NCBI GenBank assembly: GCA_028286245.1
Contig: JAQBRY010000002.1
Span: 142,779-206,778 of the forward strand
Direction: 5' to 3'
DNA: 64,000 bases
Origin: Candidatus Saccharimonadota bacterium
GTDB taxonomy: Bacteria; Patescibacteriota; Saccharimonadia; Saccharimonadales; UBA4665
Position 1 is the stretch's first letter; each line of letters opens with the position of its first letter. The notes under the pieces were generated by a model, which was not told the origin of the DNA, did not search any database, and saw only the letters and a program-made list of their open reading frames with translations. Shown here one piece after another: positions 17,072-36,490 of the stretch. Both the position numbers and the translations under genes were made by a program.

Positions 17072-18061
17072 TTAGCGGCGGCGGCTGGCTTGGCGGATAA
17101 TCCGCTGGTTGTAGCGGCGGATTAAGCGTGGGAGGCCGAATATCAGGAAGACAATCAGGGCAGCCAAAACTATAAACAGGGCTATTAAGGCAGTTGGAAT
17201 AACATAAAAGGTAGTACTGGCACTCAACAACTGACCGTTTGAACCATAGCCAAAGTTACCTTCTAATTTGTAGATACCAAATGAGCCAACCTTGTTAAGA
17301 GGGATGGTAAACTTGCGAATACTGTCCGGCAAAACGTTGCCCCGGGGAGTAGTGTTATTGATTTCGTACTGATCAAGGATTTTACCCGAACGGTTCTTAA
17401 GTAAGATTTTGCCGAAAGGCTGCTCCTGGATGTTTCCCTCGTTACGGAAACGAACAACGGCATCAATACCCTTATTGCTTGTAAACAAGCTCTTGGCGTC
17501 GTCTTTGCGGCGGGTGTCAAAACTTGCAAGATTGAGCTGGCTTTTAACATCACCGGATACTCGAACCAAGATCAAAGAACCGACACTGCCTGCCAGGTAC
17601 ACATTCTTACCGGCCGGATCGGCGTCGGCTGGCGCAAAGAGCACAGAGCCGTAGTAACCACCACCGGCAGCGTTAGCCGGGATTTTGATGGTAACCGGTA
17701 TAGAGCGCTGTTCGCCGGGCTGTAAAGAAAATTTAGGAATAGCCTGTACGTACTGGCGAAGACTGTGCTTAAGAGAAGCCGAAGCCCCGTCACGCACAAT
17801 GGCCGGCTGGCCACTTTCGTCACTGCTGGCTGCAAAGTCGTTAACAACCGCTTGCAGGTCAGATTTAGCAGTCGTGACGTTTGTAACGGTGATGTTAACC
17901 ACCTCGGACTTGCCAGGATCAATAGTAAGTTCAGTTCGGACCGGAGAAACGCGAAGGCCATTGCCACCTGCTGCCTTGGCAGTGCCGGTTACGCCACTAC
18001 CCAGTACGACGGCTAGTGTCAGCAAGAGTGCCGTTGGCCGCCATATTTTATTAAACTGCAT
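17072..18061 (-). CDS. DUF916/DUF3324-like (CscA / WxL-interacting-protein-like) surface protein with C-terminal TM anchor
   Basis: Signal peptide and two Ig-like beta modules: LRVSPVRTELTIDPGKSEVVNITVTNVT...IPANAAGGGYYGSVLF, then VVRFRNEGNIQEQPFGKILLKNRSGK. Terminal TM helix plus an RRYNQRIIRQASRRR tail. AAGGGGA RBS. Confidence 0.6.
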   Translation of the reverse strand: MQFNKIWRPTALLLTLAVVLGSGVTGTAKAAGGNGLRVSPVRTELTIDPGKSEVVNITVTNVTTAKSDLQAVVNDFAASSDESGQPAIVRDGASASLKHSLRQYVQAIPKFSLQPGEQRSIPVTIKIPANAAGGGYYGSVLFAPADADPAGKNVYLAGSVGSLILVRVSGDVKSQLNLASFDTRRKDDAKSLFTSNKGIDAVVRFRNEGNIQEQPFGKILLKNRSGKILDQYEINNTTPRGNVLPDSIRKFTIPLNKVGSFGIYKLEGNFGYGSNGQLLSASTTFYVIPTALIALFIVLAALIVFLIFGLPRLIRRYNQRIIRQASRRR

Positions 18062-18166
18062 GTCTGTTTTCCCCTTATGTTTTGCTTAGCACTATAGTAT
18101 CAAATCAGTTACTCTTTGCCAATACAGAAACCTCATAAAACAGCTTCTAAGTGCGTATGTCAAACA

Positions 18167-19228
18167 TTAAAAGTTAGCTAGGCAGGTATAGGTAACGGTG
18201 CTCACATACACGCCCGGCGCCTGAGTTTTTGGAATATTTACGATGTAACTAGCCGTATAGCGGCGAATATCATCCGGTTTATTAACGCTCACCAGCGTAT
18301 CTCCCGGCGTAAACTTATAAAAATTTGGTTGGCCGTAATTTGTTACCGGCGATGCCAGGCCGGGGCCGCCCGGATCAGTACCGCCAGCCGGCGAGCTATT
18401 AGCCCGCAGATTTAAGCCAAACTGTGAATTCCCGCTCCGCGATACATCCGCCGTATCGAGCGGGCTAATAACGTTGTTACCACTGGTAAGGGTTGTCCCG
18501 CTCACAAAAATATTGTAGCCGTCGCGCGCGTTGGTAGCAGTCAATAGCTGAGAGGTTCCTTGATTAGCATGGGTGGACGACAGCTCGCCAAAATCAACAT
18601 AGTTACCATTGGCACTAGAACAATTTAAAGAGGCAATAGTGGCACCCACACAAAAAATAATATAGGGCGGTACTTCTGCGCTAATAGCCAGGTTGGCATT
18701 AATGGCAATAACAATAGCACCGTAATCGTTGGCTACTCCCGTGCCGTCGGCAGAAGCATAGGTTTGTAAACGCACAAAATACGATCCGGTGATAGAGGGG
18801 TTGTGAATAGCATCAAAGGTGTAGCTCACCGGTCCGGCAGTTGCTGTCGCCGGCGTACGTCCGATAACAATTTTATTGGCTGTAGAACCGCTAGTAACCG
18901 TAAACCCCGTTTGCCCCGATTGGGCAGACAGACTGGCAGCGCTAGCATCCAAGCCGGTAGGAGCGGTGCACGGGTCGGTCACAAACGGACTGTTTGTACA
19001 GTATTCAACTGCAACAGAACCGAGTACGCCAATTGATGTCAGGCGAAATGATAATTTTTGACTACCCACGCCGTCAACAATACTAGTGCTCAGTGTCATC
19101 GAGCGCTGACCTAATTGGGCACCATTAACAGGGGCTGAAAGCACCCTTACCGCCAGTAGTAATACTACGAGGGCGGTAAGGACTACAACAGGCTTATGCA
19201 GCAATGTTTTGGTGAGGGGTTGGCTCAT
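18167..19228 (-). CDS. secreted beta-rich WxL-like surface protein, 353 aa
   Basis: Signal peptide. Paralogous to the 19240-20478 product (shared C-x-N-x4-D-x-C-T-x-P-T, TY(A/S), FCVG). WxL-domain-like VDFGEL...NARDGYNIFVSG...QFGLNL. Ends in YVSTVTYTCLANF. Confidence 0.6.
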   Translation of the reverse strand: MSQPLTKTLLHKPVVVLTALVVLLLAVRVLSAPVNGAQLGQRSMTLSTSIVDGVGSQKLSFRLTSIGVLGSVAVEYCTNSPFVTDPCTAPTGLDASAASLSAQSGQTGFTVTSGSTANKIVIGRTPATATAGPVSYTFDAIHNPSITGSYFVRLQTYASADGTGVANDYGAIVIAINANLAISAEVPPYIIFCVGATIASLNCSSANGNYVDFGELSSTHANQGTSQLLTATNARDGYNIFVSGTTLTSGNNVISPLDTADVSRSGNSQFGLNLRANSSPAGGTDPGGPGLASPVTNYGQPNFYKFTPGDTLVSVNKPDDIRRYTASYIVNIPKTQAPGVYVSTVTYTCLANF

Positions 19229-19239
19229 TCATTCGTAGC

Positions 19240-20478
19240 CTAGAATTTGCCAGTAGCAATCAAGTCGATGTTGGCCGTGTAAATACCGGCTGGGGTCGTC
19301 AGTGAGGCGACAGCTGCAAAGGTGTAGGTGCTGTCCATACGGTAGAGCGGAGCGGTTGAAGAAGCCACTGGGTCTCCAAAGGTACCGATCACGCTGCCGG
19401 TATCACCAGTAGTTTCGGTATCCATCCCGTAAGTGTTAGCTCCTGTAGATTTGTAGTTTGCGTCTGCAGTCAGAGTTCCTGTGCCATTGGTGTCTGGTGT
19501 ACCGTCGCCAGTCGACATGCCAAATGCGGCCGTACCAATAACCATGGTACCTATTACATAGCCTCCGGTACCGATTGCCGGGATGTCACAGCTAGTACCA
19601 CCGTTGGCACTGAGGCCACCACAAGTAGTGTTACTGTTACGCATCGCAATGGTGGCGCCAGCCGTAGCGTTGGTAGAAATTTGGGAATATACGCTGCCGG
19701 TATCAATCGCCGTAGAGTCCAAGGTAGGGGTCGGGGTGCCATGACCGAGCGTCAAGGCGGGAGCATCTGCAGCCTGTGTAGAATCACAACCGTGCGTTGT
19801 CCATGAGCTGTGGATGGTGCCAGAGACACAGAACGTTAGTTGTTCCTGAACACGAGCCGTAATGGTAATGATTTGGTTAGTACTGAGGGCAATACCGCCA
19901 TAATCTTTGTAGTTACCAGGAGCGGTTGGCAGCGTATAGGCTGTAGTGCTAGAACCAAAAGTTGCATCTGAATAGGTATAAATACGAGCGTAGAAGGTAC
20001 CGAGGGTGCTGGTATTAGTTATGCCGGTCAGGTTAAATGACTGAACGCCTGCCGCCGCCGTAGAGCCTGAGCCCTTAGCGAGTTCGATGTGGCCGGCAGA
20101 TGCCGAAGTAGCTGCCCAACCCGGGCTGGTAATATCACCCGACACACCGGCTAAGCCTACGCCGGAAGTAACCATGGCAGTTGGGACGGTACAGGTATCA
20201 CCAATAATTGGGTTCTGGGAACAGAAGTCTATTATAAGGCTGTCGGCGGCCGTGGTAGTTGTAAACTTCACTTGGTAAGTAACGCCGGTACCACTACCGA
20301 CGCCGGTAGTAATAGTACCGCCACTTACGCCGGAGTCACTCAGCGTAATGCCGCGAAGGAGCAGCTGAGCAGCAGAGGCTGTCTTAGGCCGAAAGACCGG
20401 ATAGGCCACTCCTACCAAAAGTGCAACTGCGGCCATCGTGTAGCCGACCCGTTGCAATACACGAAACTTAGTTATCAT
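19240..20478 (-). CDS. secreted beta-rich WxL-like surface protein, 412 aa
   Basis: AAGGAG RBS and a signal peptide. Paralogous to the 18167-19228 product. Ends in YTANIDLIATGKF. Confidence 0.6.
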   Translation of the reverse strand: MITKFRVLQRVGYTMAAVALLVGVAYPVFRPKTASAAQLLLRGITLSDSGVSGGTITTGVGSGTGVTYQVKFTTTTAADSLIIDFCSQNPIIGDTCTVPTAMVTSGVGLAGVSGDITSPGWAATSASAGHIELAKGSGSTAAAGVQSFNLTGITNTSTLGTFYARIYTYSDATFGSSTTAYTLPTAPGNYKDYGGIALSTNQIITITARVQEQLTFCVSGTIHSSWTTHGCDSTQAADAPALTLGHGTPTPTLDSTAIDTGSVYSQISTNATAGATIAMRNSNTTCGGLSANGGTSCDIPAIGTGGYVIGTMVIGTAAFGMSTGDGTPDTNGTGTLTADANYKSTGANTYGMDTETTGDTGSVIGTFGDPVASSTAPLYRMDSTYTFAAVASLTTPAGIYTANIDLIATGKF

Positions 20479-20592
20479 TGAATTTCTCCTTGAGTATTTT
20501 TGTTTATTGTTTTTGGTTTTAGATATTTCTGAGGCTATCGTAACACGCTTATGTTAGGGCTGCAAGCAAAACATTAAAAAGTTATCCACAAG

Positions 20593-21330
20593 TTAATAGG
20601 TCGCGGTAGCAACGAGATCGTGTTCCAGCGAGTAGGTTCCGCCCGGCGTTACGTTACTAATATTAAATAAGTAGGAGATCGTGTAGTTAGTGTAGCTGCT
20701 GCTGGCAGTGGACAAGGCTATGGTGTCATCTTTTACGTACTTATATATGTTAGGACTACTGTAATCCACTGCCACCTGGCCAAAACCAAAGGACGTATCA
20801 GGGCCCTGCGTAGGATCGGCACCAAAGGTAGTTGGCAGGGTATTGGCCACTAGGTTAATACCGAACTGCTCGGTTCCCACCTGTGAGGCAGATGGAATGG
20901 TAATTGCCGCCATATGATAGGTGTTGTTCTTAGGAGTATCAGATGTAGAAGTAACCGTATAGCCATTTGACAGGTACGATTTAACGCTAAAGGTGGCCGT
21001 TGTCGTTTTGGTGGTAGTTGGTGTCATGGTTCCCAGGTCTACGTTTGTAGTACCAACGGTAAATTCGATGTAGGGTTCCCTATTTGTATTAAAGCCACCC
21101 TGGGCCTGAAAATTAGTGCTCGCCGTATTGCCTACCGCTGTTTCACCGGCCGACTGCTTAGAGCAGTAGCTTCCTGAACAGGCATTGAGCTCGCCGCCGC
21201 TACCAAAAAAGACCTCGTTCACTTGATACGAATTGGAGGATGACTGAGCAGCAAAAGTTATTGCTGGGGTGAGTACTACCACGAGCAATCCAAAAAAGGC
21301 TAGTTTTACTGTTTGTTTCCAGACACGCAT
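20593..21330 (-). CDS. secreted beta-rich WxL-like surface protein, about 245 aa
   Basis: Signal peptide MRVWKQTVKLAFFGLLVVVLTPAITFA from the ATG at 21330. Contains NGYTVTSTS...EQFGINLVANT. Ends in YSLEHDLVATATY. Confidence 0.6.
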   Translation of the reverse strand: MRVWKQTVKLAFFGLLVVVLTPAITFAAQSSSNSYQVNEVFFGSGGELNACSGSYCSKQSAGETAVGNTASTNFQAQGGFNTNREPYIEFTVGTTNVDLGTMTPTTTKTTTATFSVKSYLSNGYTVTSTSDTPKNNTYHMAAITIPSASQVGTEQFGINLVANTLPTTFGADPTQGPDTSFGFGQVAVDYSSPNIYKYVKDDTIALSTASSSYTNYTISYLFNISNVTPGGTYSLEHDLVATATY

Positions 21331-21431
21331 AATACTAGGTATATTTTGCCGTAAAACCAACAAAATGGCAATCCGTTTACGGTTACAAGGTTTTTAAAGT
21401 ATCATAAGACTACTTATAGACGCAGTAAATT

Positions 21432-22418
21432 ATGGACTCCACTAACCCAACACCACCAGAAGAAAGCCAAGCCGACCCCGATGCCGATGCCGACGCCCTA
21501 GAACGCACCGACACAGAAAATGCTGAGGCAGAAAAAGCTACAACACCGGTAGCACCCGTCGCGCCGCCAAAAAAAGGCGGTATTATGGGTATTGTTAAAC
21601 GATTTAACATTTACCTTATGCTGTTCCTTTTTGTACTGACTATCGCTGTGGCAGTTATTATTGTGGCTTACTTTCAGAGCCAAAAGGGCACCACAAAAGC
21701 TACCGTTACTACACAGGATCTTAATCAGGCGGCCCTCGATCAGCTGGCTAATAGCGACGCCTCTGTGGGCGATCCTAAACAGTTACTGAATGTTCAGTCT
21801 AATGCCGTTTTTGCCGGCCAGGTACTGGTGCGAGGCTCCGCGGAGATTGCCGGCGGCCTCCAAGTAACGGGTAGTACTGTTCTGGTAAACCTTACCACCT
21901 CCGGCCCCGCCGTGTTTGATCAAGCGCAGGTTAATAAAACGCTGAGCGTCGCCGGCGACACCACCATACAAGGAAGCCTGGCAATTCAAAAAGGCATTCA
22001 AGTAAATGGCGGCGGTAGCTTTAGCGGGCCGGTAACCGCCACCCAGATCACTACAAATGCCTTCCAGCTGGCAGGCGACCTGACACTGACTAGCCACGTG
22101 GTAGCCGGCGGCTCAACTCCTACTCGGGTCAATGGCCCGGCGCTCGGCAGCGGCGGCACTACCAGCGTAAGCGGCTCCGACACTAGCGGCACCCTAGCCG
22201 TGAATACCGGTAGCGGACCCTCAGCCGGTTGCTTTGCCACCATCACCTTTGCTCGTAAATATAACGCCGTTCCGCACATTACCGTCACGCCGGTTGGCTC
22301 AGATGCCGGCGGACTAGCCTACTATATTACCCGCACCGCAACCACCTTTAGTATCTGTTCCGCCTCCCCGGCGCCTGCCGGCTCATCCTTTGCTTTTGAT
22401 TACTTTGTCGTGGAATAA
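21432..22418 (+). CDS. membrane-anchored beta-helical repeat protein
   Basis: Acidic N-terminus, then one TM helix (IYLMLFLFVLTIAVAVIIVAYF). Degenerate G/T/V-rich repeats follow (VLVRGSAEIAGGLQVTGSTVLV...). The C-terminal ~90-aa beta domain may be lectin-like. Confidence 0.6.
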   Translation: MDSTNPTPPEESQADPDADADALERTDTENAEAEKATTPVAPVAPPKKGGIMGIVKRFNIYLMLFLFVLTIAVAVIIVAYFQSQKGTTKATVTTQDLNQAALDQLANSDASVGDPKQLLNVQSNAVFAGQVLVRGSAEIAGGLQVTGSTVLVNLTTSGPAVFDQAQVNKTLSVAGDTTIQGSLAIQKGIQVNGGGSFSGPVTATQITTNAFQLAGDLTLTSHVVAGGSTPTRVNGPALGSGGTTSVSGSDTSGTLAVNTGSGPSAGCFATITFARKYNAVPHITVTPVGSDAGGLAYYITRTATTFSICSASPAPAGSSFAFDYFVVE

Positions 22419-22457
22419 TACTGACCAGTAACATCAGATATGATATAATACATAGCC

Positions 22458-23993
22458 ATGACAACGCCTATAGCTACCAACACAAATGAAAAAATCGGCC
22501 AGTTAATCGCCCGTATCCGTCAGGATAGGGGCCTAACCCAAGCCGAGTTTGCCGACCGGCTTAAAACCTCCCAGTCAGCCGTAAACCGGATTGAACACGG
22601 CCGGCAAAACCTAAGTTTAGAGATGTTAGGACGCATTAGTGACGTCTTAAATAAGCAGCTGATCAGCGTGAGTGGTGGTGCAGTAAACCTAAGAATTGAA
22701 GGCGGCCACGAGCTGCACGGCGAAATTGACCTCAAAACCAGTAAGAATGCTGCCGTTTCACTATTATGCGCCAGCCTTCTCAACTATGGTGTTACCCGCT
22801 TTAAATCATTTCCACGTATCGAGGAGGTAAACCGCATTATTGAAGTGCTCGAAAGCATCGGCGTCCAGGTAAAATGGCTGCCCGGCAATGATCTGGAAAT
22901 CCGCCGTCCAGAAGTTTTACAACTCGACAAACTGGACGCCAAAGCGGCCCGTAAAACTCGTTCGGTCCTGATGTTGATTGGCCCGCTTATGCACGACCAC
23001 CAACTATTCAAAATTCCGTTTGCCGGTGGTTGTAAGCTCGGCACACGCACAGTGGCTCCCCACTTTTATGCGCTCGAAGAACTCGGCGTTAGCATTGTAG
23101 CTACCAAAGGCAATTACGAAGTAGCGGTTAATAAAAAATCAGCCGACAGAATTACCCTGTACGAACCGGGTGACACCGTTACCGAAAACGTTCTCATGGC
23201 TGCCGCCCGCACCACCGACCAGGTGTTTATAGAGTTTGCCAGTGCCAACTACATGGTGCAAGAAATGTGCTTTTTCCTGCAAAAACTCGGCGTCGAGATC
23301 AGCGGCATCGGTACCAGCAAGTTAACCGTAAAAGGCGTACCATTTATAAAAAAGAACATTACCTACGCCCCGAGCGAAGACCCCATTGAGGCCATGTTCT
23401 TTGTGTCGGCCGCGGTCACCACGAACTCTGAAATCACTATTAATCGTGTGCCAATCGAGTTTATGTCTATGGAGCTTCTTAAGCTCAAAAAAATGGGGCT
23501 TAGCTACGACGTAACACCTCGTTACAAAGCCCTCAACGGCCAAACCGATCTGGTAGACCTAACCGTTCATAAACACGACGGCAAACTACGTGCTGTGGCC
23601 GATAAAATCCACTCCCTGCCCTTCCCTGGCCTCAACGCCGACAACCTGCCCTACTTTGTGCCAATTGCCAGCGTCACCCGCGGCCGCACGCTTATCCACG
23701 ACTGGATGTATGAAAACCGGGCCATCTACTACACCGAAATGACTAAGATTGGTGCCCAAATTGAACTGGCCGACCCGCACCGTGTATTCATTACCGGCGC
23801 TACTAAATTTACTCCCGCCGATGTGGTTTGTCCGCCAGCCCTCCGGCCAGCTTCACTACTGCTCATAGGCATGCTCGCCGCCAACGGCATCAGCATCCTG
23901 CGTAACATCTACACTATTCAGCGCGGCTACGAAGACCTGGCCGAACGACTCAACAGCCTCGGCGCCGACATTACCGTCCTCCACGAGATCTAG
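22458..23993 (+). CDS. murA: XRE-type HTH domain fused to UDP-N-acetylglucosamine 1-carboxyvinyltransferase
   Basis: N-terminal IARIRQDRGLTQAEFADRLKTSQSAVNRIEHG (HTH_3-like). The rest is collinear with MurA/EPSP-synthase fold proteins (KTSKNAAVSLLCASLL, active-site-loop Cys in FAGGCKLGTRTV). TATAAT (22444-22449) ends 8 nt before the ATG. Confidence 0.85.
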   Translation: MTTPIATNTNEKIGQLIARIRQDRGLTQAEFADRLKTSQSAVNRIEHGRQNLSLEMLGRISDVLNKQLISVSGGAVNLRIEGGHELHGEIDLKTSKNAAVSLLCASLLNYGVTRFKSFPRIEEVNRIIEVLESIGVQVKWLPGNDLEIRRPEVLQLDKLDAKAARKTRSVLMLIGPLMHDHQLFKIPFAGGCKLGTRTVAPHFYALEELGVSIVATKGNYEVAVNKKSADRITLYEPGDTVTENVLMAAARTTDQVFIEFASANYMVQEMCFFLQKLGVEISGIGTSKLTVKGVPFIKKNITYAPSEDPIEAMFFVSAAVTTNSEITINRVPIEFMSMELLKLKKMGLSYDVTPRYKALNGQTDLVDLTVHKHDGKLRAVADKIHSLPFPGLNADNLPYFVPIASVTRGRTLIHDWMYENRAIYYTEMTKIGAQIELADPHRVFITGATKFTPADVVCPPALRPASLLLIGMLAANGISILRNIYTIQRGYEDLAERLNSLGADITVLHEI

Positions 23994-24034: not shown

Positions 24035-24109
24035 GCGGGATTAGTACATCGGTTAGTATGTGAGTTTTCCAAACTCGAGAGACCAGTTCGACTCTGGTAT
24101 CCCGCACCA
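24035..24109 (+). tRNA. tRNA-Gly(UCC)
   Basis: Hand-folded cloverleaf. Acceptor GCGGGAT/ATCCCGC. Anticodon arm TGAGT-TTTCCAA-ACTCG. T-arm ACCAG-TTCGACT-CTGGT. CCA is encoded. Confidence 0.9.
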
Positions 24110-24121: not shown

Positions 24122-24198
24122 GCCCTGGTAGCTCAGTTGGATAGAGCAGGAGACTTCTAAGCTCAAGGTCATTGGTTCGAATCCAATCCGGGGCACCA
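24122..24198 (+). tRNA. tRNA-Arg(UCU)
   Basis: Acceptor GCCCTGG/CCGGGGC. D-arm GCTC-AGTTGGATA-GAGC. Anticodon loop CTTCTAA. T-arm ATTGG-TTCGAAT-CCAAT. CCA is encoded. The anticodon stem has only 3 Watson-Crick pairs (GGAGA/GCTCA). Confidence 0.8.
24181..24198 (+). repeat. attL-like direct repeat ATCCAATCCGGGGCACCA (3' end of tRNA-Arg)
   Basis: Perfect 18/18 match to 29509-29526 in the same orientation. Confidence 0.85.
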
Positions 24199-24475
24199 GA
24201 TAGAACAGGTGGTCAGTCTCACTGATTTTACCAATCATCTGGTACACGGCAGCGGTACGCAGTACCACCTGCTCGTCATAGATGTCTTCGGCAGCCATTA
24301 TGTACAACTGCTTTGCGGCTGTCTTCGCACCAGCCGTTTCATCGTAGGTCAGAATCACGTTCAGCCAATATATCGCTTCTCTGATGCGACCAATTTTTAT
24401 CTCCTTACGGAGCGAACTGATTACCTCAAAAAAGTCGTAAGCCCCAAGCTTCTTTTGATAATAGCCAGCACTCAT
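24199..24475 (-). pseudogene. RarA/MgsA C-terminal-domain-like fragment
   Basis: YDFFEVISSLRKEIKIGRIREAIYWLNVIL...AKQLYIMAAEDIYDEQVVLRTAAVYQMIG resembles the MgsA_C helical domain. There is no AAA+ part. The ORF has no stop of its own and runs into the antisense of tRNA-Arg (track end 24113). Confidence 0.45.
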
Positions 24476-24665
24476 ATTTGTAGTAAATCCATACTACTAA
24501 TTCTGACTTAGCCATGCTGCAAGTCAAGTTATTTGTATCTGTTAAGCACTACTGGTATGCAGGCTGTTAGAGCGTCTATTTCATATAAAGTGTGGGTTTG
24601 GATGTTTAGCCGGTGGGAACGCAGTGAGCGGCATATATGCAGGCTCCATCCTGTAATCCATATCC

Positions 24666-25304
24666 TCAGGAAGTTGCATATTCAATAAACTCTTTACCAA
24701 ATGCAGTTACTCGCACGAAGGGGGCAGGATAGCCCTCAGTGATACGGTTATCACTGAATTGGCTGAGTAATCCAAGATGAGTCAGGTTGTATATGTTGTC
24801 CTCGTTTTTATCGGTGCTGCCGTATATCTGGTAGCTTTTATCTTGCCTTGAAAGGTCAACGTCTTTGAGTGTTGCGACATCAATGTTGCTGAGTTGCTGT
24901 GAAGTCATGAGCAGCCTTTCCAGAGGGAACTCTTCATGGTCGCCAGTTGCCACATACCCAAGAAATACGTTCTTGATGTACTGCCTTTTTTCTTCGTTTC
25001 GCTCTGCAAGGTACTGCTCTACACAATAGACAAAGCCATCTTGGAATGTTTCAGTTGCAAGAACATCCTCTGTAAATATCTCTGGATTATCACGAATAAG
25101 TTCGACCCATTCAATGGCTCGTTTCTCACGAAGCTTCAAAGCATTACCAAAGATTGCCTTCGTAAGTCCCCAAGCCGTTCCTAGTCCGACTACGGAAAGG
25201 GCGATTTTATCGGCTCCACTCAAAGCGGTGCCAGCAGCAGAAACCGCCTGATCAGCGACAACCGCGGCGGAGGCTTTTAATAACTCTTTATCACTATCTT
25301 TCAT
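24666..25304 (-). CDS. hypothetical protein, 212 aa, with Gly/Ala-rich hydrophobic N-terminal segment
   Basis: ATG at 25304 with TATAAT (25311-25316) 6 nt upstream, 40 nt after the stop of the nuclease-fold gene. Hydrophobic segment AVSAAGTALSGADKIALSVVGLGTAWGLTKAIFG. The track's start at 25454 was rejected because it overlaps the upstream gene. Confidence 0.55.
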   Translation of the reverse strand: MKDSDKELLKASAAVVADQAVSAAGTALSGADKIALSVVGLGTAWGLTKAIFGNALKLREKRAIEWVELIRDNPEIFTEDVLATETFQDGFVYCVEQYLAERNEEKRQYIKNVFLGYVATGDHEEFPLERLLMTSQQLSNIDVATLKDVDLSRQDKSYQIYGSTDKNEDNIYNLTHLGLLSQFSDNRITEGYPAPFVRVTAFGKEFIEYATS

Positions 25305-25344
25305 AACACTATTATATGTCGTCTTTCTGCTTACGGCTCTTAGT

Positions 25345-26874
25345 TTATTGCTCTTCGTCAACAGTAACTGTGTATGCGTCCTGTAAGTCTCCCCCGAAGA
25401 CGTATTCGTAATGTTCCAGTTCATCACGGAAGTTGTTTCGTAAAAACGTCGCATACTCCCAGCCAGCGGTTAGGCGGTCACTGACGTATGGCTCAATCAG
25501 CTCTGATAGCGGATGCGACTTTGCTAGAAATGCCAGTTCTTCCATATCATCAATCGAAGCCACGACATACGGCGATTCATCAATGATTTCGACTGGCAGA
25601 CCTGCGTTGACGACCTTTTCCTTAACGATTTCGTGCAGCATACGGATTTGCTCACCCATCAAGTACCATTTCTCAAGAGTCGTCACACATATGTACGCCT
25701 TCTTTTCAGCCGCCAGCGTAAAGGTAGGGTTGCGATATGTGCCGTCACGATATGCCTTGAGACTCAGATATGCTTGAGTGACCGCATCTCCAAGCAAGCC
25801 CAGTTGCTCGAACAGTTCCTTATCGTCTAATAGCGATGTTTTTGCTCCCATCGTAAGACGCTTTGTCTTGCACTCATCGATTAAGCATTGGTCTGGCTGG
25901 TCGATAACCCAGTCGCAGCGGTTCGGGCTTGTAGCGGTATTCTGTTCGCCAGGGTAAATACCGATACCACTTCCATCGAATGTTTTGGCGAGCATGGAGC
26001 CGACATACTCCTCAAAAGCTTGACCAAATACATTGTCGAAGCCCTTTTCTCTGTATAAATCGTAGTAAAGTCCAGAGGTAAGACGCCAATAAAGTAATCT
26101 GGGCAACGGACAGACATGTGCTGGTCTGCCGTTGATTTCCGTAAAGATGATTGGGTAAGTGTACAGCGAATGATGCCCATAAAAGAACTGGTCGTCCAGA
26201 TGTCGCTCTGATGGATTTGTGAGCATCGCCTTAATTTCATCCAACGGCTTCGAGTACAAACTCATAAACTGGTCGTAGTCAGCCTGGGTTATGCCAGTAA
26301 GTGACAGGTCTTCGAGCGGATAGAACATGCCAATGTACTGGGAGTAATTACCAAACATTGAAGTACCGAGGGTGAATAACTGTTTTGGCTCCAAACCAAG
26401 CTTCCGTTTCACGATGGGAATCATTTGCGGATGACCGAATATCTTGGAATACCGAACCATGCTTTCATTGCTTGGTCTGTCGGTCTGATATTTGAATTGA
26501 CGATGGGCGAGCCGTACCGACACTTCATGCATGATGTTCTTCTGACCAATATGGTGCTTTGCGATGAACTCTTCAATAGCCTTCATTTTATTGATGACAC
26601 TACCCATGCTGTTTGCTCGCTTGAGCGTATTGCGTGGTGATGGGCTTGGCTCACATACGATTACCACTTCTCGTGCCAGTGTCTCCAACTCCCAGGGCAA
26701 AAACGCATTCGGTCTATCAATCCAGGGGTGAACTTCAATATCATTCGGCATTGCAGGTGCCGCTCGCAACGCATCGTGTACAGAATAAGCCCTGATAACG
26801 CCAAGAGTGTCGATAATATCGAGTGTATTCAGATAATTGCGAAGTGGCTTCCATGCGTCATAAACATCGGTCAT
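25345..26874 (-). CDS. PD-(D/E)xK nuclease-fold protein, about 509 aa
   Basis: GQAFEEYVGSML...RCDWVIDQPDQCLIDECKTKRL (D...ExK at 25867-25917). The first ~300 aa are unrecognised. CATACT (26881-26886) lies 6 nt upstream of the ATG at 26874. The track's TTG start at 26919 is less likely. Confidence 0.65.
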   Translation of the reverse strand: MTDVYDAWKPLRNYLNTLDIIDTLGVIRAYSVHDALRAAPAMPNDIEVHPWIDRPNAFLPWELETLAREVVIVCEPSPSPRNTLKRANSMGSVINKMKAIEEFIAKHHIGQKNIMHEVSVRLAHRQFKYQTDRPSNESMVRYSKIFGHPQMIPIVKRKLGLEPKQLFTLGTSMFGNYSQYIGMFYPLEDLSLTGITQADYDQFMSLYSKPLDEIKAMLTNPSERHLDDQFFYGHHSLYTYPIIFTEINGRPAHVCPLPRLLYWRLTSGLYYDLYREKGFDNVFGQAFEEYVGSMLAKTFDGSGIGIYPGEQNTATSPNRCDWVIDQPDQCLIDECKTKRLTMGAKTSLLDDKELFEQLGLLGDAVTQAYLSLKAYRDGTYRNPTFTLAAEKKAYICVTTLEKWYLMGEQIRMLHEIVKEKVVNAGLPVEIIDESPYVVASIDDMEELAFLAKSHPLSELIEPYVSDRLTAGWEYATFLRNNFRDELEHYEYVFGGDLQDAYTVTVDEEQ

Positions 26875-26955
26875 GTACATAGTATGCTCTTGGTGCTGTG
26901 ATGATGACAAAACTTCCAATATATATACAGTGCTACTCTGTTCTACAATAGCTGT

Positions 26956-27954
26956 ATGCAGGCATTACAAAAGAAAGTCATTCTACCAGTAAGCATTAGT
27001 ACCGTCCCCGAACTACTGGGAATGGAGTTTGATATTTCATTTCGGAAAATCAATGCCAAAATACACTTTCCAATATCAAGTAAGCACAATGACAAAGTCG
27101 GCATTAACGCTCCACTTTTACCGCCAGCACCTTATGATACAGGCGTATTGAAGATGATGGATAAAGGCTTGGCTGGCGGATGGCTCCAATGGGGTGCAAA
27201 CTCGTCTATTGAAAACGGCTCACTTTCTAGTGTAAGCGTTGGAGGCATCATTTTAACTCTCGATGGCGACTTTGAAACTAGAGATGAAGCTCGTACAACC
27301 CTTAACGCTATAGAGAGTAAGTTTCTGGAATGGTATCGAGTATTTGGAGCATGGCTAGACCTTCTTTCATGCCAAGACTTGAATACAGCTGAACCTGATA
27401 GCTTCATATCAAAAAATACGATGAACGATTTGTGGTCGGTACGAGTTGGCAAGGAATGGAGCAATGCAGGTCCAGACGTCATATACCTCACCACCGATAT
27501 AAAGTCGAAAAAGCTCATGATAAATGAAGCAATGGTCAGGGAGGCGATTAAGCGAGCCGATAAAGGCGACGATGTTAGCACAGAAAACAAACTCCTAATG
27601 GATGCGAGGCACCGTTTTAATCGTGAGGACTACAATGGCAGCTGCCTATATTACGGTCAGTACATCGAGGTGACCGCAAGGCGTAAGATTATTGATTACT
27701 TCGATAGCCAAGAGATTGGTGTCGAAATATCTAATGCTTTCCTTGAGAACAAAGCTATTTATGATTTACTCGATAGCTGTAAAAAGTTCTCAATCGACAT
27801 AAATCTCACCAATAAACAGCGAGGGGAGGTGTGTAAAATACGAAACCTTACGGCTCATGCTCGTCAGAGCTTAACTCTGCACTACGCACAGGAAATGGAG
27901 ACTTATGCTAACAAAGTATTTGAGGTTAGTCAGCCTGCTGACTTGTATGTATAG
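26956..27954 (+). CDS. HEPN-motif protein, 332 aa (putative RNase)
   Basis: The helical C-terminal region contains KIRNLTAHAR (R-N-x3-H at 27841-27858). The first ~190 aa are unrecognised. TACAAT (26944-26949) lies 6 nt upstream of the ATG. Confidence 0.6.
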   Translation: MQALQKKVILPVSISTVPELLGMEFDISFRKINAKIHFPISSKHNDKVGINAPLLPPAPYDTGVLKMMDKGLAGGWLQWGANSSIENGSLSSVSVGGIILTLDGDFETRDEARTTLNAIESKFLEWYRVFGAWLDLLSCQDLNTAEPDSFISKNTMNDLWSVRVGKEWSNAGPDVIYLTTDIKSKKLMINEAMVREAIKRADKGDDVSTENKLLMDARHRFNREDYNGSCLYYGQYIEVTARRKIIDYFDSQEIGVEISNAFLENKAIYDLLDSCKKFSIDINLTNKQRGEVCKIRNLTAHARQSLTLHYAQEMETYANKVFEVSQPADLYV

Positions 27955-28189
27955 TATGTAAAGGTTCTAATACAGCTGGGTAGTATTTATATAGAGTAGC
28001 CAACAGGTGCCGTAGTCATTTGACTGAACAGTTCGTCCCAACGCACCAGTTCAGACTTGATGCGGTTCCAATTAGCGACCTTGAAGCCGCACCATTCCTA
28101 CGAAATAACATTTGCAATCCGTACAAATAGTTTGATGCCGCAATATCCGCATTAGATGCTCAACCCAAATATACTGATATACTCAAACC

Positions 28190-28750
28190 ATGTCCACAGT
28201 AGTCTCGGTTGAATACGCACACATTTACACCAATCAACACATTTCGGACGAGCATCGGCTTTCCCTCAGTGTTTTAGGTGATGTCGTCAAACAGAACAGT
28301 GCAGACGGTAAACAAACATCTTTAGTGGTCATGGTAGATGATTATTCGTTTCCTGATCCAACATTTGATTACGAAAAATTTACAACCTGGCTCGATCATC
28401 AAGGCTTTAAGCCAGATCTAGTTTTCAGGGAGTCGCAGCTGATACCCGTCTGTGATCAAGTTTTAGGGCTCATAAATAATGCTAAACTACGGCAGCAATT
28501 AACAGACTACATTAAGGCTAAGAAGTATCCGTGCTCACTATTTATCGCCGCCTGGTATTTACTAAGGCTTGGTAAGCTTAAATCACCGCTATACCCAGAA
28601 GTATTACGTGCTGACCAGTTATACAACATACTCCCCGAAAGTTTTAAGCCATTTGAAGACAAGGGGCTAGAGATAATTGGAGCCACACTTTACCATGATA
28701 GTCTTGAGTCAATTAAATATAAGTTTGTGGCTGGTCGGCTGATAGCCTAA
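28190..28750 (+). CDS. hypothetical protein, 186 aa
   Basis: ORF with TATACT (28178-28183) 6 nt upstream of the ATG. No motif recognised. Confidence 0.5.
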   Translation: MSTVVSVEYAHIYTNQHISDEHRLSLSVLGDVVKQNSADGKQTSLVVMVDDYSFPDPTFDYEKFTTWLDHQGFKPDLVFRESQLIPVCDQVLGLINNAKLRQQLTDYIKAKKYPCSLFIAAWYLLRLGKLKSPLYPEVLRADQLYNILPESFKPFEDKGLEIIGATLYHDSLESIKYKFVAGRLIA

Positions 28751-29351
28751 ACACGAGCTCACTATATGAGTTGTCAAAATTCGAATTTTGGCCATCAATC
28801 GTAAAATTTATTTGTTTTTCGAGGGTAAACCCAAGTGCCTCAAAATACTTAATCTGCCTGGATGCAACTGGTACTTTTTTATCTTCACGAATGACGTGAA
28901 TCGCGCTATCAATCAGTAGCATGCCTGTGTCTGCAATCAAATGCCGTAGAGTCATCGCGTAATGTGGGCTTAGGGGATCGTCACCAAACCAGTTAAACGG
29001 TAGACTTGTGTATATATAGTCATATTTGTCGTCGAAAAACAGTTGTGTCATATCACCAAGCTTAGTTATTCCGACCCCAAGTCCTCGGGCCGTGAGTGAT
29101 GCCGCCTCTTCACTAGAAATTTTAAAGTTATTCGCATCAATGTCACAAGCATCAACTTGAGTAGCCCCGAGAGTTCTTAGCACGCGAGGAATGGTGTAAG
29201 CCCCACACGCCGGATCAAGGCCAAGTAAACCGTTATGGGTCAAATCATACTCATTAGCCATCCACATAACAACGCTATCAGGAACGATGGTGCGTGTATC
29301 ACCAGTGAAGCCGCGAGGAACATAAAAATCACCGGGAACATGAACAATCAT
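28713..29351 (-). CDS. class I SAM-methyltransferase-like protein with degenerate motifs
   Basis: LGLDPACGAYTIP (motif I-like), DACDID (acidic end of beta-2) and IYTSLPFNWF (a degenerate (D/N/S)PP(F/Y) motif IV). TGTATAGT lies 7 nt upstream of the ATG at 29351. The 3' end overlaps the convergent 186-aa ORF by 38 nt. Confidence 0.5.
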   Translation of the reverse strand: MIVHVPGDFYVPRGFTGDTRTIVPDSVVMWMANEYDLTHNGLLGLDPACGAYTIPRVLRTLGATQVDACDIDANNFKISSEEAASLTARGLGVGITKLGDMTQLFFDDKYDYIYTSLPFNWFGDDPLSPHYAMTLRHLIADTGMLLIDSAIHVIREDKKVPVASRQIKYFEALGFTLEKQINFTIDGQNSNFDNSYSELVFRLSADQPQTYI

Positions 29352-29508
29352 TATCATAACTATACAGTCTACTGATAATTAATAGTACTTAGCCTACAGG
29401 CAGCTCGGCAAAGCTGGGCTGTTTTTTGGTATTTCGTATTGGACTAACAGAACGTTCGGTCGTTAGTCACAGCCCCCAGCGTAGCGGGCGGCTGGATTAA
29501 CGTGCGCT

Positions 29509-29526
29509 ATCCAATCCGGGGCACCA
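29509..29526 (+). repeat. attR-like direct repeat ATCCAATCCGGGGCACCA
   Basis: Perfect copy of the tRNA-Arg 3' end with no tRNA body upstream. Confidence 0.85.
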
Positions 29527-29576
29527 CAATGCTTATACTTTACACTATAATCTTTTTGTGTTATAATCGGTTTGTT

Positions 29577-30173
29577 ATGAATTATTTGGGTAAATTCCAA
29601 CCTCCCTCCGCCGAAGATATAGCAACTCTCGACCCTGCTGAACGTGCAGATATGGCCGCGGCCTTATTAGAGGGTCTTGAGCCGGGTCGGCAGCCACTCA
29701 ACTTATTTAAACAGCTGGCTCGTTTGACTGTAGTTTCAACAGTTGAGGTAGTGCCCATTCGAACCGTCAAAAAACAACCAGAGATCTGGCTGGGTAAACG
29801 AAGCGAGAATGATCCATGGTGGCCTAATAAATGGGCGCTACCCGGTGTCGTAGTTCTACCGAGCGACACACATGATAATCAGAATACTCTCCTTGGGCCG
29901 GTAGCACGGTTGTTTGAATCTGAATTGCGCGGCATTCGGCAGATTGATGACCTATATCAACTACCGAGCCAGTTTCGTTTTGATGATCGAGGCAATGAAG
30001 TAACTACACAGTATTGGACTCATGTTGAGACGGACGAAGAGCAGTATGACGGACGCTTTTTTGCCCTCGATGATATACGAGACGCAGAACTTGATGGCAG
30101 CTTACTCAAGGAAGGTTTGATTACGATTGACCGCGCAATCGCCGACTACCAAATACGCCGCACTCAAGCGTAG
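29577..30173 (+). CDS. Nudix-fold protein with degenerate Nudix box
   Basis: KWALPGVVV...LLGPVARLFESELRGI resembles W-x-LPGG...G-x5-E-x7-REUXEEXGU, but the REXXEE is imperfect. The ATG at 29577 follows TATAAT-like hexamers. The track's GTG start at 29502 overlaps the att repeat and was rejected. Confidence 0.5.
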   Translation: MNYLGKFQPPSAEDIATLDPAERADMAAALLEGLEPGRQPLNLFKQLARLTVVSTVEVVPIRTVKKQPEIWLGKRSENDPWWPNKWALPGVVVLPSDTHDNQNTLLGPVARLFESELRGIRQIDDLYQLPSQFRFDDRGNEVTTQYWTHVETDEEQYDGRFFALDDIRDAELDGSLLKEGLITIDRAIADYQIRRTQA

Positions 30174-34104: not shown

Positions 34105-34650
34105 ATGACAAAGTTTTACTTAGTAACGGGCAATGCCGGGAAACTTGCCCAGTATAAGCGGCTCTTGCCAAGCGACATAGAGTTTGAACCCATTGATTTG
34201 GACTTGCCCGAGATACAGAGTCTGGATAGTGAGGTACTTATTACAGACAAAGCTAAACGGGCCTATCAAATTGTACAAAAGCCAGTCGTCATAGAAGACG
34301 TGGCTGCCGGCCTAACGGCATTAAACGGCCTGCCCGGCCCCTTTATAAAATTCTTCGAACAGAGGCTTGGCGCTGATGCCCTAGCCCAATTAGCCACCAC
34401 ACAGCCTGCACAGGCCACCGTAAGCTGTACAATTGGCTTTTACGACGGTAGTTCACTCCTAATAGCCCGCGGCACCGTAAAGGGCACGGTAGTACCGGCC
34501 CGCGGTAGCAATGGCTTTGGGTTTGATAGTTGTTTTGTCCCTGATGGCCAGACTAAAACCTTCGCCGAGATGACTAACGGCGAAAAAGATGCCATCAGCC
34601 ATCGTTCCCTGGCAGTTTTAGACTTACTGGCACGACTAAAAGATTTGTAA
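34105..34650 (+). CDS. rdgB: non-canonical purine NTP pyrophosphatase (HAM1/RdgB family)
   Basis: FYLVTGNAGKLAQY...GLPGPFIKFF...GFGFDSCFVP...EKDAISHRSLA matches the ITPase signature order. Confidence 0.85.
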   Translation: MTKFYLVTGNAGKLAQYKRLLPSDIEFEPIDLDLPEIQSLDSEVLITDKAKRAYQIVQKPVVIEDVAAGLTALNGLPGPFIKFFEQRLGADALAQLATTQPAQATVSCTIGFYDGSSLLIARGTVKGTVVPARGSNGFGFDSCFVPDGQTKTFAEMTNGEKDAISHRSLAVLDLLARLKDL

Positions 34651-34697: not shown

Positions 34698-34775
34698 GGC
34701 GAGCTTAGCTCAGTTGGTTAGAGCGCCGGGTTGTGGTTCCGGAGGTCGTGGGTTCAATTCCCATAGTTCGCCCCA
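34698..34775 (+). tRNA. tRNA-His(GUG) with encoded G-1
   Basis: G-1 at 34698 pairs with C73. Acceptor GCGAGCT/AGTTCGC. Anticodon arm CCGGG-TTGTGGT-TCCGG. T-arm GTGGG-TTCAATT-CCCAT. CCA is encoded. Confidence 0.9.
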
Positions 34776-34792: not shown

Positions 34793-34818
34793 AGAGACCC
34801 AGCAATGGGTCTCTTTTG
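34793..34818 (+). terminator. rho-independent terminator after tRNA-His
   Basis: 8-bp stem AGAGACCC/GGGTCTCT, 6-nt loop, then a T-run. Confidence 0.7.
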
Positions 34819-34850
34819 CTATAATGGTAGTAAATGGTAAAACAAAAAAC

Positions 34851-35396
34851 ATGCTAGATCATTTCGTGACAGCGCAAATAGTTGGCATTGTTGCAGTAAC
34901 TGTCTCGTTACTCTTATTCCAGTTTAATGATCGCCGGAAAATGCTCAACATTGGCGTCTGCTCGGCATTATTATGGACGCTGCACTTTTACCTGCTCGGT
35001 GCATACACCGGATCCGCCATGAATGGCATTAGCGCCATACGCGATCTTACGTTAGCTAGGACCAAACCAACCAGTAATAACCTGTGGATTTTAGGAGCGA
35101 TTATGCTGCTAGCGACGGCCGCGACGATCATTACATGGCACGGTATAGTTTGTATTTTGCCGCTGATTGCCTGCGGACTAAATGCTGCATCATTCTGGAG
35201 CACTAATACTAAAAGAATCAGAAGATTTTATTTGCTAGTGCCGCCGCTATGGTTTACTTATAACTTTTTCTCACATTCATATCCAGGCATGGCTATTGAA
35301 CTCATACTTGTGATCTCAAATATTGTCGCTCAATTTAGATTTGACCGCAAAAAGACCTCAAGGCGCAAACTGGCGACTAAGCTGCAGACATCATAG
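34851..35396 (+). CDS. YgjV-like inner membrane protein
   Basis: About 180 aa with 5-6 TM helices in the YgjV family style. The ATG at 34851 follows TATAAT at 34820-34825. The track's ATG at 34824 overlaps that -10. Confidence 0.55.
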   Translation: MLDHFVTAQIVGIVAVTVSLLLFQFNDRRKMLNIGVCSALLWTLHFYLLGAYTGSAMNGISAIRDLTLARTKPTSNNLWILGAIMLLATAATIITWHGIVCILPLIACGLNAASFWSTNTKRIRRFYLLVPPLWFTYNFFSHSYPGMAIELILVISNIVAQFRFDRKKTSRRKLATKLQTS

Positions 35397-35400
35397 TTCC

Positions 35401-35409
35401 AGTTCGAAC
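35401..35409 (+). repeat. AGTTCGAAC motif, copy 3 (core only)
   Basis: Lies 5 nt after the TAG stop of the YgjV-like gene. Confidence 0.4.
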
Positions 35410-35445
35410 ATCGTCCACTACTGCGCCCCGAGCATTAGTACATTA

Positions 35446-35472
35446 GAGACTCCTAGGAGTCTCATTTATTTT
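35446..35472 (+). terminator. rho-independent terminator
   Basis: Perfect 8-bp stem GAGACTCC/GGAGTCTC, 2-nt loop, then ATTTATTTT. Confidence 0.7.
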
Positions 35473-35553
35473 GCCCACATGCTACGGTAGCTATCCAGTA
35501 TTAGTCGATCCATGGTATAAATAAGATTAACTATTTAATGCGAATGAAGATCT

Positions 35554-36057
35554 ATGACTGATAACGAACTTCGTGATGTGCTCAATGCTTCGTTTAAAGA
35601 CCTCAAGGTTGGTATACACATTTATCAGCTGCAGGATATTAGTGACGACAAATCCCTGCGCATTGTTTATGCCAACGAGCACTCACAAACGTTAATCGGT
35701 CAAAAAATAGATGAAATGGTCGGCAAAACTATTGATGAATGCTTTCCGTCTATCCGCAGTAAGGGCGTGCCGGAAAAATATGCGCTGGTAGCACTAGGCG
35801 GCGATGCTATAGAGCTAGAAGATGTTTCGTATGAGGATTCACACATTCAAGGAGCCTTGGCAATTAATGCCTACTCCCTTCCCCACACCTGCGTTTGTGT
35901 AATGTTTGCCAATATTACCGCTCGAGCCCAGACCCAAGACGATATAAAAAAGCGCAACGATGAGCTGACGGCCCTGAACGAAATTATGGTTAACCGCGAG
36001 CTAAAGATGATTGAGCTAAAAGACCAAATTAATAAGCTAAAAATGCAGCTCAAATAA
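35554..36057 (+). CDS. PAS-like domain protein ending in an MVNRELKMIELK coiled coil, no output domain
   Basis: 167 aa. PAS-like core (IVYANEHSQTLIGQKIDEMVGKTIDECFP...). C-terminal LNEIMVNRELKMIELKDQINKLKMQLK (motif at 35986-36021). Confidence 0.65.
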   Translation: MTDNELRDVLNASFKDLKVGIHIYQLQDISDDKSLRIVYANEHSQTLIGQKIDEMVGKTIDECFPSIRSKGVPEKYALVALGGDAIELEDVSYEDSHIQGALAINAYSLPHTCVCVMFANITARAQTQDDIKKRNDELTALNEIMVNRELKMIELKDQINKLKMQLK

Positions 36058-36088
36058 ATTACAGCAACACTCAGTAATAAGCTGGCGG

Positions 36089-36490
36089 CTAGCTCGTTGA
36101 AGGTACATCGTTACGAGTGTAACCGGCAGTAATTTCTTCTACCATGTCGGCGATCTGCTTTGGATCGTATTCACTCTTAATGATGTACTTTACGGCACCC
36201 TTGCTGAGCGCGGTTTCAATATCATTTTCACCGGCAAGGTTAGATAACATAATGACGGGGATTGCTTTGGTAGCGGGATCAAGTTTTAATTTTTCCAGGA
36301 CTTCGATACCATTCATGACTGGCATCATCACATCAAGCAAAATGATGGTAGGCGAAACGGTCCGAGCCAATTCCAGTCCCTCCTGGCCATTGGCAGCCAG
36401 TACTACTTCGAACTTCTCGAAAGTAAATATTTTTTCATACATTCTCTGTATGAGTTGATCATCTTCTATAATTAGTACTTTTTTAGACAT
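36089..36490 (-). CDS. single-domain response regulator (receiver only)
   Basis: KVLIIEDD, ILLDVMMPVMNG (phospho-acceptor Asp), PVIMLSN, and K in VKYIIKS. No output domain. Confidence 0.9.
   Translation of the reverse strand: MSKKVLIIEDDQLIQRMYEKIFTFEKFEVVLAANGQEGLELARTVSPTIILLDVMMPVMNGIEVLEKLKLDPATKAIPVIMLSNLAGENDIETALSKGAVKYIIKSEYDPKQIADMVEEITAGYTRNDVPSTS

Follow-up and report, generated by a model that had tools for sequence, protein, structure and literature searches.

Among transfer RNA (tRNA)-associated islands, loss of the integrase is ordinary and gives rise to anchored islands and cryptic integrative elements, and recombinase-less islands that are mobilised in trans occur in other bacteria. 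Integration by large serine recombinases (LSRs) is known, for example, from phiC31-type prophages, SCCmec and Tn5397, and in the SSV1-type integration of archaeal viruses the attachment site of the element (attP) lies inside the integrase gene, which is split upon integration. Pipolins are repeat-flanked integrative platforms with exchangeable defence cargo (PMC11551731), and GAPS1 is a single-protein anti-phage system of GMT islands with a capsid protein as its trigger, in which residues D313 and K328 are essential (bioRxiv 10.1101/2023.03.28.534373). Here, we describe the interval 24199-29508 of a 64-kb stretch of DNA (the whole stretch analysed, hereafter the window) from a Saccharibacteria genome (assembly GCA_028286245.1, contig JAQBRY010000002.1). 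We consider it probable that this interval is an immobilised remnant of integrative cargo islands in a tRNA-Arg(TCT) gene, and we will focus on the traces that its lost recombination module has left and on the element family to which these traces lead.

The island is a decayed tRNA-integrated genomic island of a known kind; taken alone, it is an ordinary recombinase-less genomic island and not a new kind of integrase-free mobile element. Like other tRNA islands without an integrase, it adjoins a tRNA gene, has a direct repeat of the tRNA 3' end at its borders, is foreign in composition, carries accessory and defence cargo and has no working recombinase. Position, repeat and composition agree with a tRNA island, and a recombinase is an expected feature that was not found. 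It differs from these islands in its host, a member of the Saccharibacteria within the candidate phyla radiation (CPR), and in that the loss can be reconstructed from a stump of an integrase-linked gene, a look-alike of the attachment (att) core and the tail of an LSR gene.

The island starts 1 nt past the CCA of the intact tRNA-Arg gene (24199). An 18-mer, ATCCAATCCGGGGCACCA, composed of 3 nt of the T-loop, the 3' strand of the T-stem, the acceptor strand, the discriminator base and CCA of this tRNA, occurs exactly at 24181-24198 and at 29509-29526, and no further copy is present in the window with up to 3 mismatches allowed. No tRNA body lies 5' of the second copy, and the identity between the two ends cleanly at 18 bp. 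Two matches were obtained in 0 of 100 shuffles, and 0 of 2000 shuffles reached the observed repeat in an anchored test. Between the repeat copies the GC content is 44.5%, compared with 49.6% for the window, and 480 non-overlapping 5.3-kb windows all have higher values; the tetranucleotide distance of the island is 0.295, against 0.151 ± 0.022 (maximum 0.230) elsewhere, which makes it the top compositional outlier of the 64 kb. An initial annotation, made from the sequence alone, had reported the repeat pair, the missing tRNA body and the AT-richness, suggested compositional profiling and read the whole as an attL/attR footprint; these claims are borne out, and the tRNA 3'-end repeat together with the foreign composition supports site-specific integration into the 3' end of tRNA-Arg.

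The same annotation had noted the absence of any recombinase gene and had left the choice between an immobilised element and one mobilised in trans. An intact tyrosine or serine recombinase was indeed not found in the 64 kb, either by phmmer with XerD, lambda Int and gamma-delta resolvase (E ≤ 10) or by tblastn with the integrases and LSRs of the element family described below (E ≤ 1), but the last 35 codons of an LSR had been overlooked at 27987-28094. Immobilisation fits the lack of a working recombinase, whereas mobilisation in trans does not fare as well: the missing integrase is probably the result of a deletion and not the design of an element moved in trans, as judged from gene order, because the gene adjoining the tRNA is the 5' stump of a gene that in every intact relative examined lies directly upstream of the integrase.

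The relatives in question form an element family that has no name and is defined here from contigs L082-L096. Its marker is a gene for a protein resembling the C-terminal part of RarA (RarA-C-like), viewed at full length in seven independent contigs (L082, L084/85, L086, L087/88, L089, L090/91 and L095/96). In all seven, a PF00589 tyrosine integrase of 306-314 aa follows on the same strand, its gene overlapping the 3' end of the RarA-C-like gene by 4-8 nt (in L082, the integrase N-terminus alone is present before the contig ends). Further on, after two to five open reading frames (ORFs), an LSR is found in five (L084/85, L087, L089, L090 and L095); the L082 and L091 contigs end before this position, and in L086 no intact LSR ORF was called there and a broken LSR lies further upstream. 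The latter (L086 5832-7598) is a serine recombinase in three consecutive ORFs (184 + 171 + 202 aa) that belongs to another island and has kept its C-terminal tail unsplit. The family LSR has 523-561 aa, with Resolvase, Recombinase and zinc ribbon domains, and the 3' end of its gene adjoins a tRNA 3' end (Lys-CTT, Glu-TTC or Trp) and runs 41-42 nt into the tRNA. The backbone thus reads: distal repeat of the tRNA 3' end, LSR tail, variable cargo, RarA-C-like gene, tyrosine integrase, small ORFs and the LSR adjoining the tRNA. The backbone genes are transcribed toward the tRNA, and the stump in the window has, relative to its tRNA, the orientation of the full-length gene in all these contigs. The cargo upstream of the module includes SMODS/CBASS, type III-like restriction-modification, ThsB_TIR, PIN and methyltransferase/HNH genes.

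Searches anchored at CCA located 9-11 nt of the tRNA terminus again at distal, intergenic positions in L084, L086, L087 and L090, at a distance of 10-14.6 kb, and each of these repeats was reached by 18-67 of 2000 shuffles (p ~0.01-0.03); no such repeat was found in L083 or L089, and none of the related loci has a tRNA repeat of at least 12 nt. A 12-nt repeat in L083, TAACAGATGAGA, was rejected as chance, about 10 such pairs being expected in 18 kb by our estimate. In L084, L086 and L087 the displaced fragment is followed by a hairpin and T-run, which is the original terminator of the tRNA. The codons after the distal repeat are open in the LSR frame for 26-37 codons and share a tail motif (WRATVDAIRT in L087, WRAIVELIRT in L084 and WQGYVDAFQT in L090). 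Because in-frame, homologous LSR tails adjoin the distal repeats, the LSR gene appears to contain the attP of the family within its 3' coding region. Integration would accordingly move the true tail of the LSR to the far end of the element and give the enzyme 13 residues of tRNA antisense instead, an exchange that may amount to an integration-dependent change of the enzyme; the tail-swapped LSR is predicted to stay active, probably at least. As in SSV1, the last 26-37 recombinase codons are parted from the body of the gene and placed at the other end of the element; in contrast to SSV1, the enzyme is a serine and not a tyrosine recombinase, and a short C-terminal tail is swapped for 13 tRNA-antisense codons. 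With known LSR-driven elements the intact relatives have in common the terminal position of an LSR gene of this size at the att site and identity cores of 9-11 nt, and they differ in targeting the extreme 3' end of tRNA genes, in carrying a tyrosine integrase and a RarA-C-like gene and in the position of attP; the window itself keeps just 35 LSR codons.

No description of such islands for Saccharibacteria, or of this family, was found in the literature searched. It is possible, and we put it forward tentatively, that the intact relatives represent an undescribed class of mobile defence islands in Saccharibacteria, in which an LSR integrates at the last 9-11 nt of tRNA genes, attP lies within the LSR gene itself with the tail swap (26-37 versus 13 residues) as a possible switch between integration and excision, and the RarA-C-like protein and tyrosine recombinase border a swappable cargo slot; the window would then be the fossil record of two such islands stacked at one tRNA. 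The mobile elements and phage defences of Saccharibacteria, which are ultra-small episymbionts, have been little explored, and the family points to two-recombinase, tRNA-targeting islands in them with CBASS-associated (SMODS), restriction-modification, ThsB_TIR and GapS1-like genes, which makes it a more interesting lead than the remnant described here.

Two pieces of this backbone, and no others, are kept in the window (Table 1), namely the LSR tail with a core (27957-28095) and the 92-codon RarA-C-like stump with its upstream region (24200-24559). The RarA-C-like gene directed toward the tRNA, the LSR tail with a core and the mosaic cargo of the family were thus all found; a tyrosine integrase that overlaps the RarA-C-like gene at its 3' end and an LSR body adjoining the tRNA were not. 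Over 93 aa the stump shares 97% identity with P0129, its identity with the full-length genes of L082 and L084-L091 is 59-72%, and it matches the RarA model NF011289 with E=1.4e-3; the RarA-C-like protein has 101 homologues, several with PF12002. Its frame runs on through the antisense of the tRNA, and the C-terminal 120 aa of the protein are encoded nowhere in the 64 kb. Together with the upstream region, the stump (window 24559-24186) corresponds to L095 1222-1595 with 95.2% nucleotide identity. At the far end, window 28094-27957 corresponds to L095 24-161 with 95.7% nucleotide identity. This LSR tail is 74% identical to the C-terminus of the broken L086 LSR (E=3e-10), has an in-frame stop just upstream and begins at TGGTGCG, the position of the L095 repeat copy TGGTACG; homology to L095 stops exactly at the internal core. 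The tRNA-proximal 3.9 kb (24199-28095) hence belongs to the RarA-C-like/integrase/LSR family.

L095 itself encodes a helix-turn-helix (HTH) regulator on the opposite strand, a 173-aa protein, the 214-aa RarA-C-like protein, the tyrosine integrase, four further genes and the LSR. The two segments that match it are colinear in the window and flank different cargo: between borders that are ~95% identical, L095 carries the HTH regulator and the 173-aa protein and the window carries three other genes, which suggests cassette-like exchange of cargo via recombination in conserved borders. In the 7.7-kb L095 contig, 23 nt precede the distal repeat, and the last 21 nt lie in tRNA-like sequence. A circular contig was considered and rejected, as a terminal overlap is absent, and L095 reads better as an integrated element whose contig was broken at both att junctions; an assembly break at both would be expected if that sample contained the occupied form together with empty or circular ones.

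The junction between the tRNA and the stump shows how the module may have been lost. At the breakpoint, the intact L095 gene reads ATCCGTGCCACCA, which is identical to the tRNA-Arg 3' end at 11 of 13 positions; the crossover would therefore lie within the shared CACCA. In the other orientation, the look-alike is CTGGTGGCACGGAT in the intact gene and CTGGTGCCCCGGAT in the tRNA antisense, and across the junction ...TTCTATCTGGTGGCACGGATG... in L095 corresponds to ...TTCTATCTGGTGCCCCGGATTGG... in the window, the latter being the antisense of the tRNA-Arg 3' end. This look-alike of the att core has the same orientation as the core, lies exactly at the breakpoint and is missing in other family members. 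In the proposed model, one deletion joined the tRNA, or attL, core to the look-alike inside the RarA-C-like gene, either by short-homology illegitimate recombination or by a recombinase acting on a pseudo-site, and ~6.1 kb would have been lost, measured on L095, and with it the remaining RarA-C-like codons, the tyrosine integrase, the small ORFs and the LSR body. The left arm beside the tRNA-side core has been replaced by mid-gene sequence of the truncated gene. Because neither a recombinase nor an intact attL arm remains, the unit is most likely fixed, with its cargo locked in the chromosome. The locus provides a worked example in which the loss can still be read on either side, from the gene stump next to the tRNA and from the distal recombinase tail. 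Its breakpoint illustrates how an element can lose its recombination module, and have its cargo fixed in the chromosome, through an internal sequence that happens to resemble the att core.

The host is a member of the Saccharibacteria (TM7; CPR). Its MurA (22458-23993) has 218 relatives, every named one of which is from Saccharibacteria, and the 80 murA loci from GTDB species genomes kept for comparison (L001-L080) show 71-88% MurA identity. These loci share a frame of murA, tRNA-Gly, tRNA-Arg, tRNA-His and a P-type ATPase gene, with the same Gly-Arg tRNA pair downstream of murA, and the stretches between the frame genes vary; tRNA-Arg and tRNA-His are 3.1 kb apart in L001, 6.4 kb in L004 and 10.5 kb in the window. 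The genes of 24.2-34.0 kb are near murA in none of the 80 relatives, and in many of these, homologues of the window genes at 34105-34650 or 50925-53380 come less than 10 kb after murA. Core genes had been reported on both sides of the island; this applies to the left flank (15042-23993), which is common to the three closest relatives only, but nothing to the right of tRNA-Arg is shared in this neighbourhood with those relatives. The MurA of the window carries an N-terminal Cro/C1-type HTH domain (PF01381), and this fusion is kept in the relatives retrieved, whose alignments begin at query residues 1-10. In L013 (78% MurA identity), a tyrosine integrase gene (12337-12801) reads into the 3' end of tRNA-Arg(TCT), and this integrase is unrelated to those of the RarA-C-like/LSR family. 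Because an unrelated tyrosine integrase adjoins tRNA-Arg(TCT) in L013, the arrangement of genes points to this tRNA as a recurrent target, used by a second kind of element.

With regard to the order of events, an integration left the 18-bp duplicate of the tRNA 3' end at 29509-29526, and the distal 1.4 kb (28096-29508, two genes) would be an older remnant at the same tRNA and the owner of that repeat. The L095-like element would later have landed at the regenerated tRNA end, resulting in tandem accretion. The internal core (28087-28095), which shares GCACCA with the tRNA-Arg 3' end, is probably the distal junction of the L095-like element and the border between two stacked remnants (24199-28095 and 28096-29508), and between two such remnants and a single composite element the balance is about even. 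One form of the latter, which we regard as unlikely, would have the whole 5.3 kb arrive in one integration that made the 18-bp repeat, with the LSR tail and 9-nt core (27957-28095) as an internal relic of earlier recombination or imprecise excision in a previous host and with the same later deletion of the module. It is consistent with there being just one exact long repeat pair, with the low GC over the whole interval and with a core that fits tRNA-Gly better than tRNA-Arg, which is unexpected for a second integration at tRNA-Arg. It does not explain why the LSR tail lies at the very end, beside the repeat, in every family member with a resolved distal end, or why homology to L095 stops exactly at the core, and the family repeats have 9-11 nt, not 18. 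The tRNA-side core adjoining the middle of a truncated gene and not an element end, with the recombinase arm gone, is in turn difficult to reconcile with an intact non-autonomous element that never encoded, or no longer needs, a recombinase of its own and is moved in trans by one elsewhere that recognises the two 18-bp copies. Such elements have the precedent in other bacteria mentioned above, the repeats at both ends are perfect and the window covers 64 kb of a 474-kb contig; nevertheless, the predicted circle junction (GTGCGCT, the 18-mer and GATAGAAC) is absent from viral contigs, and no second copy of the unit was seen, an exact-protein look-up of the island having returned only the same locus. 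We consider this account very improbable. In IMG/VR, the RarA-C-like protein and the 332-aa cargo protein have no match. Even less can be said for a non-mobile origin, in which the second 18-mer would be left over from a partly duplicated or decayed tRNA gene and the interval would be a fast-evolving host region: the missing empty site and the variable distance between tRNA-Arg and tRNA-His among relatives speak in its favour, and it is scarcely credible in view of the clean end of identity at 18 bp, the lack of a tRNA body upstream, the strongest compositional deviation of the window and the recurrence of three genes and two non-coding or relic segments, with up to 97% identity, in integrase-bearing islands.

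Several observations nonetheless weigh against an immobilised remnant of stacked islands as we describe it. None of the 80 related murA loci has the right-flank genes within 10 kb of murA, and the predicted empty junction (tRNA-Arg followed by CAATGCTTATAC) has no exact match in metagenome contigs, in which relatives of the first right-flank protein were likewise not detected; an empty site, comparison for which had been proposed with the initial annotation, could not be found because the stretches between the conserved frame genes vary among relatives. No intact family member was seen at tRNA-Arg(TCT). For the size of the deletion and the ancestral sequence, we relied on an element of another metagenome with 95% identity and not on this lineage. 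The 18-bp repeat is longer than the 9-11 nt of the family and is not confidently assignable to the L095-like element, the two-element view draws on the LSR tail and a 9-nt core whose match by itself has p ~0.02, and this core has more in common with tRNA-Gly (8+1 nt) than with tRNA-Arg (6 nt). Finally, the match of the cargo nuclease to GapS1, at 37.6 bits, is far below the NCBIfam cut-off of 320.

The cargo had been described as consisting of orphan or defence-like ORFs only. A GapS1-like nuclease agrees with this, but the conserved stump at 24200-24475 and a 186-aa protein with an aminoacyl-tRNA synthetase-like fold do not, and from the matches obtained the label 'defence-like' seems warranted for one gene and plausible for another, and nothing supports it for the remaining ones. 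No match in Pfam, PADLOC or PHROGs was obtained for five of the six proteins of the island, the exception being a partial match to the Mad2 methyltransferase. The cargo is a mosaic, in which the 212-aa and GapS1-like proteins are common to other island-bearing contigs: the former, which has no family match in these collections, shares 80% identity with a cargo protein of 210 aa from the L090/L091 element, and the latter has copies in other islands with 86% (L082) and 64% (L083) identity. Pipolins differ from this island, which has no primer-independent PolB and another recombination module.

The GapS1-like protein matches NF047931 with E=1.2e-9, and this model matches 36 of the 37 members of the protein's own family (best 3e-31), in which D336, E349 and K351 are invariant. 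It has 84 homologues with a patchy distribution across phyla. Because of its homology with GAPS1, it is most likely, by analogy, a single-protein defence that arrests growth when triggered by phage. With GAPS1 it has in common that one large protein bears a C-terminal PD-(D/E)xK motif, with a 15-residue spacing from D to K (D336/K351 versus D313/K328), and that it is found on mobile islands with a patchy distribution; it differs in being very divergent (37.6 bits versus 320) and in residing on an island of another kind without the GMT trio.

The 332-aa protein (record JWM81_409 of a Candidatus Saccharibacteria MAG) is rare, with only 6 homologues, which are solitary in other contexts. Its RNLxAH motif is invariant in 6 sequences and fits the Rx4-6H motif of HEPN proteins, which suggests a candidate HEPN-like RNase; no Pfam, PADLOC or PHROG match supports HEPN, and the structure model is unusable (pLDDT 43). 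The model of the 186-aa protein resembles the ArgRS, CysRS and MetRS cores in Foldseek (E=2e-4, query-normalised TM-score 0.65), and the predicted fold is thus like the catalytic core of class I aminoacyl-tRNA synthetases. Several of its 310 relatives are fused to NNMT/PNMT/TEMT methyltransferases and one to a GNAT acetyltransferase (named relatives are P0193, P0209, P0213, P0221, P0242 and P0201), and the domain looks like an uncharacterised family of small-molecule enzymes. A split fusion with the adjoining methyltransferase was considered and rejected, the neighbour being unlike the fused methyltransferase domains. This 214-aa S-adenosylmethionine (SAM)-dependent methyltransferase matches PADLOC mad2 (E=3e-10, partial coverage) and, below the cut-off, Methyltransf_25 (E=5e-3), and has no sequence match in the PDB.

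Table 1. Coordinates of the island, its flanking tRNA genes and the relics of the recombination module (window numbering).
Feature	Position	Strand	Remarks
tRNA-Gly(TCC)	24035-24109	+	ARAGORN and Rfam; 3' end CCGCACCA
tRNA-Arg(TCT), intact, integration target	24122-24198	+	ARAGORN and Rfam
18-bp direct repeat, copy 1 (attL core)	24181-24198	+	Exact match to copy 2
Putative deletion junction	24186-24204	.	tRNA 3' end (ATCCGGGGCACCA) joined to mid-gene RarA-C-like sequence
Truncated RarA-C-like (MgsA_C, PF12002-type) gene	24200-24475	-	First 92 of ~211-214 codons
Conserved upstream region of RarA-C-like gene, proximal edge of cargo slot	24476-24559	-	L095 match
Cargo gene, 212 aa	24666-25304	-	Start taken at Met51 of longest ORF
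Divergent GapS1-superfamily PD-(D/E)xK protein, 524 aa	25345-26919	-	Likely true start Met16, at 26874
Rare cargo gene, 332 aa	26956-27954	+	Invariant RNLxAH motif (R296-H301)
LSR relic	27957-28094	-	Last 35 codons (27987-28094, WCGFKVANWNRIKSELVRWDELFSQMTTAPVGYSI, then stop) and 30-nt conserved trailer (27957-27986)
Internal att-like core CCGCACCAT	28087-28095	+	Last 8 nt of tRNA-Gly and 1 nt (T)
Cargo gene, 186 aa, HUP/Rossmann nucleotide-binding fold	28190-28750	+	AlphaFold pLDDT 96.8
SAM-dependent methyltransferase, 214 aa	28713-29357	-	Weak similarity to methyltransferase part of Mad2
Terminator-like hairpin and T-run, just inside right end	29398-29424	+	Consensus match only
7-bp inverted repeat GACTAAC / GTTAGTC	29442-29448 / 29462-29468	.	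Present, not significant
18-bp direct repeat, copy 2 (attR core), displaced tRNA-Arg 3' end	29509-29526	+	
Best promoter-like site of the region, TTTACA-17-TATAAT with TG	29539-29567	+	Consensus match

Of the minor features at the right end, the 7-bp inverted repeat had been reported one base off its position; it is real, but carries no weight because the window has 1.6 perfect inverted repeats of 7 bp (loops of 3-20 nt) in every kb on average, and the RNA fold around it has a z-score of -1.4. The promoter-like site lies in the host flank, 13 nt past attR and 5' of the first flanking gene (29577-30173).

Further along the window, a 16-kb block (34800-50850) that follows tRNA-His (34699-34775) is missing there in relatives, and in L011 the homologue of Ham1 is directly followed by that of the ATPase without this block. 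The stretch at 34.5-39.8 kb is the second-strongest compositional outlier and encodes YgjV, PAS, response-regulator, histidine-kinase, CHASE4 and Cache proteins. A second island at tRNA-His was considered and rejected, as the end of tRNA-His is not repeated and the genes there encode signalling proteins. In three of the related loci (L016 at 15301, L058 at 13173 and L069 at 12584), the last 14 nt of tRNA-Arg(TCT) are repeated ~70-145 nt 3' of the gene, and these recurrences could be scars of excised or decayed elements.

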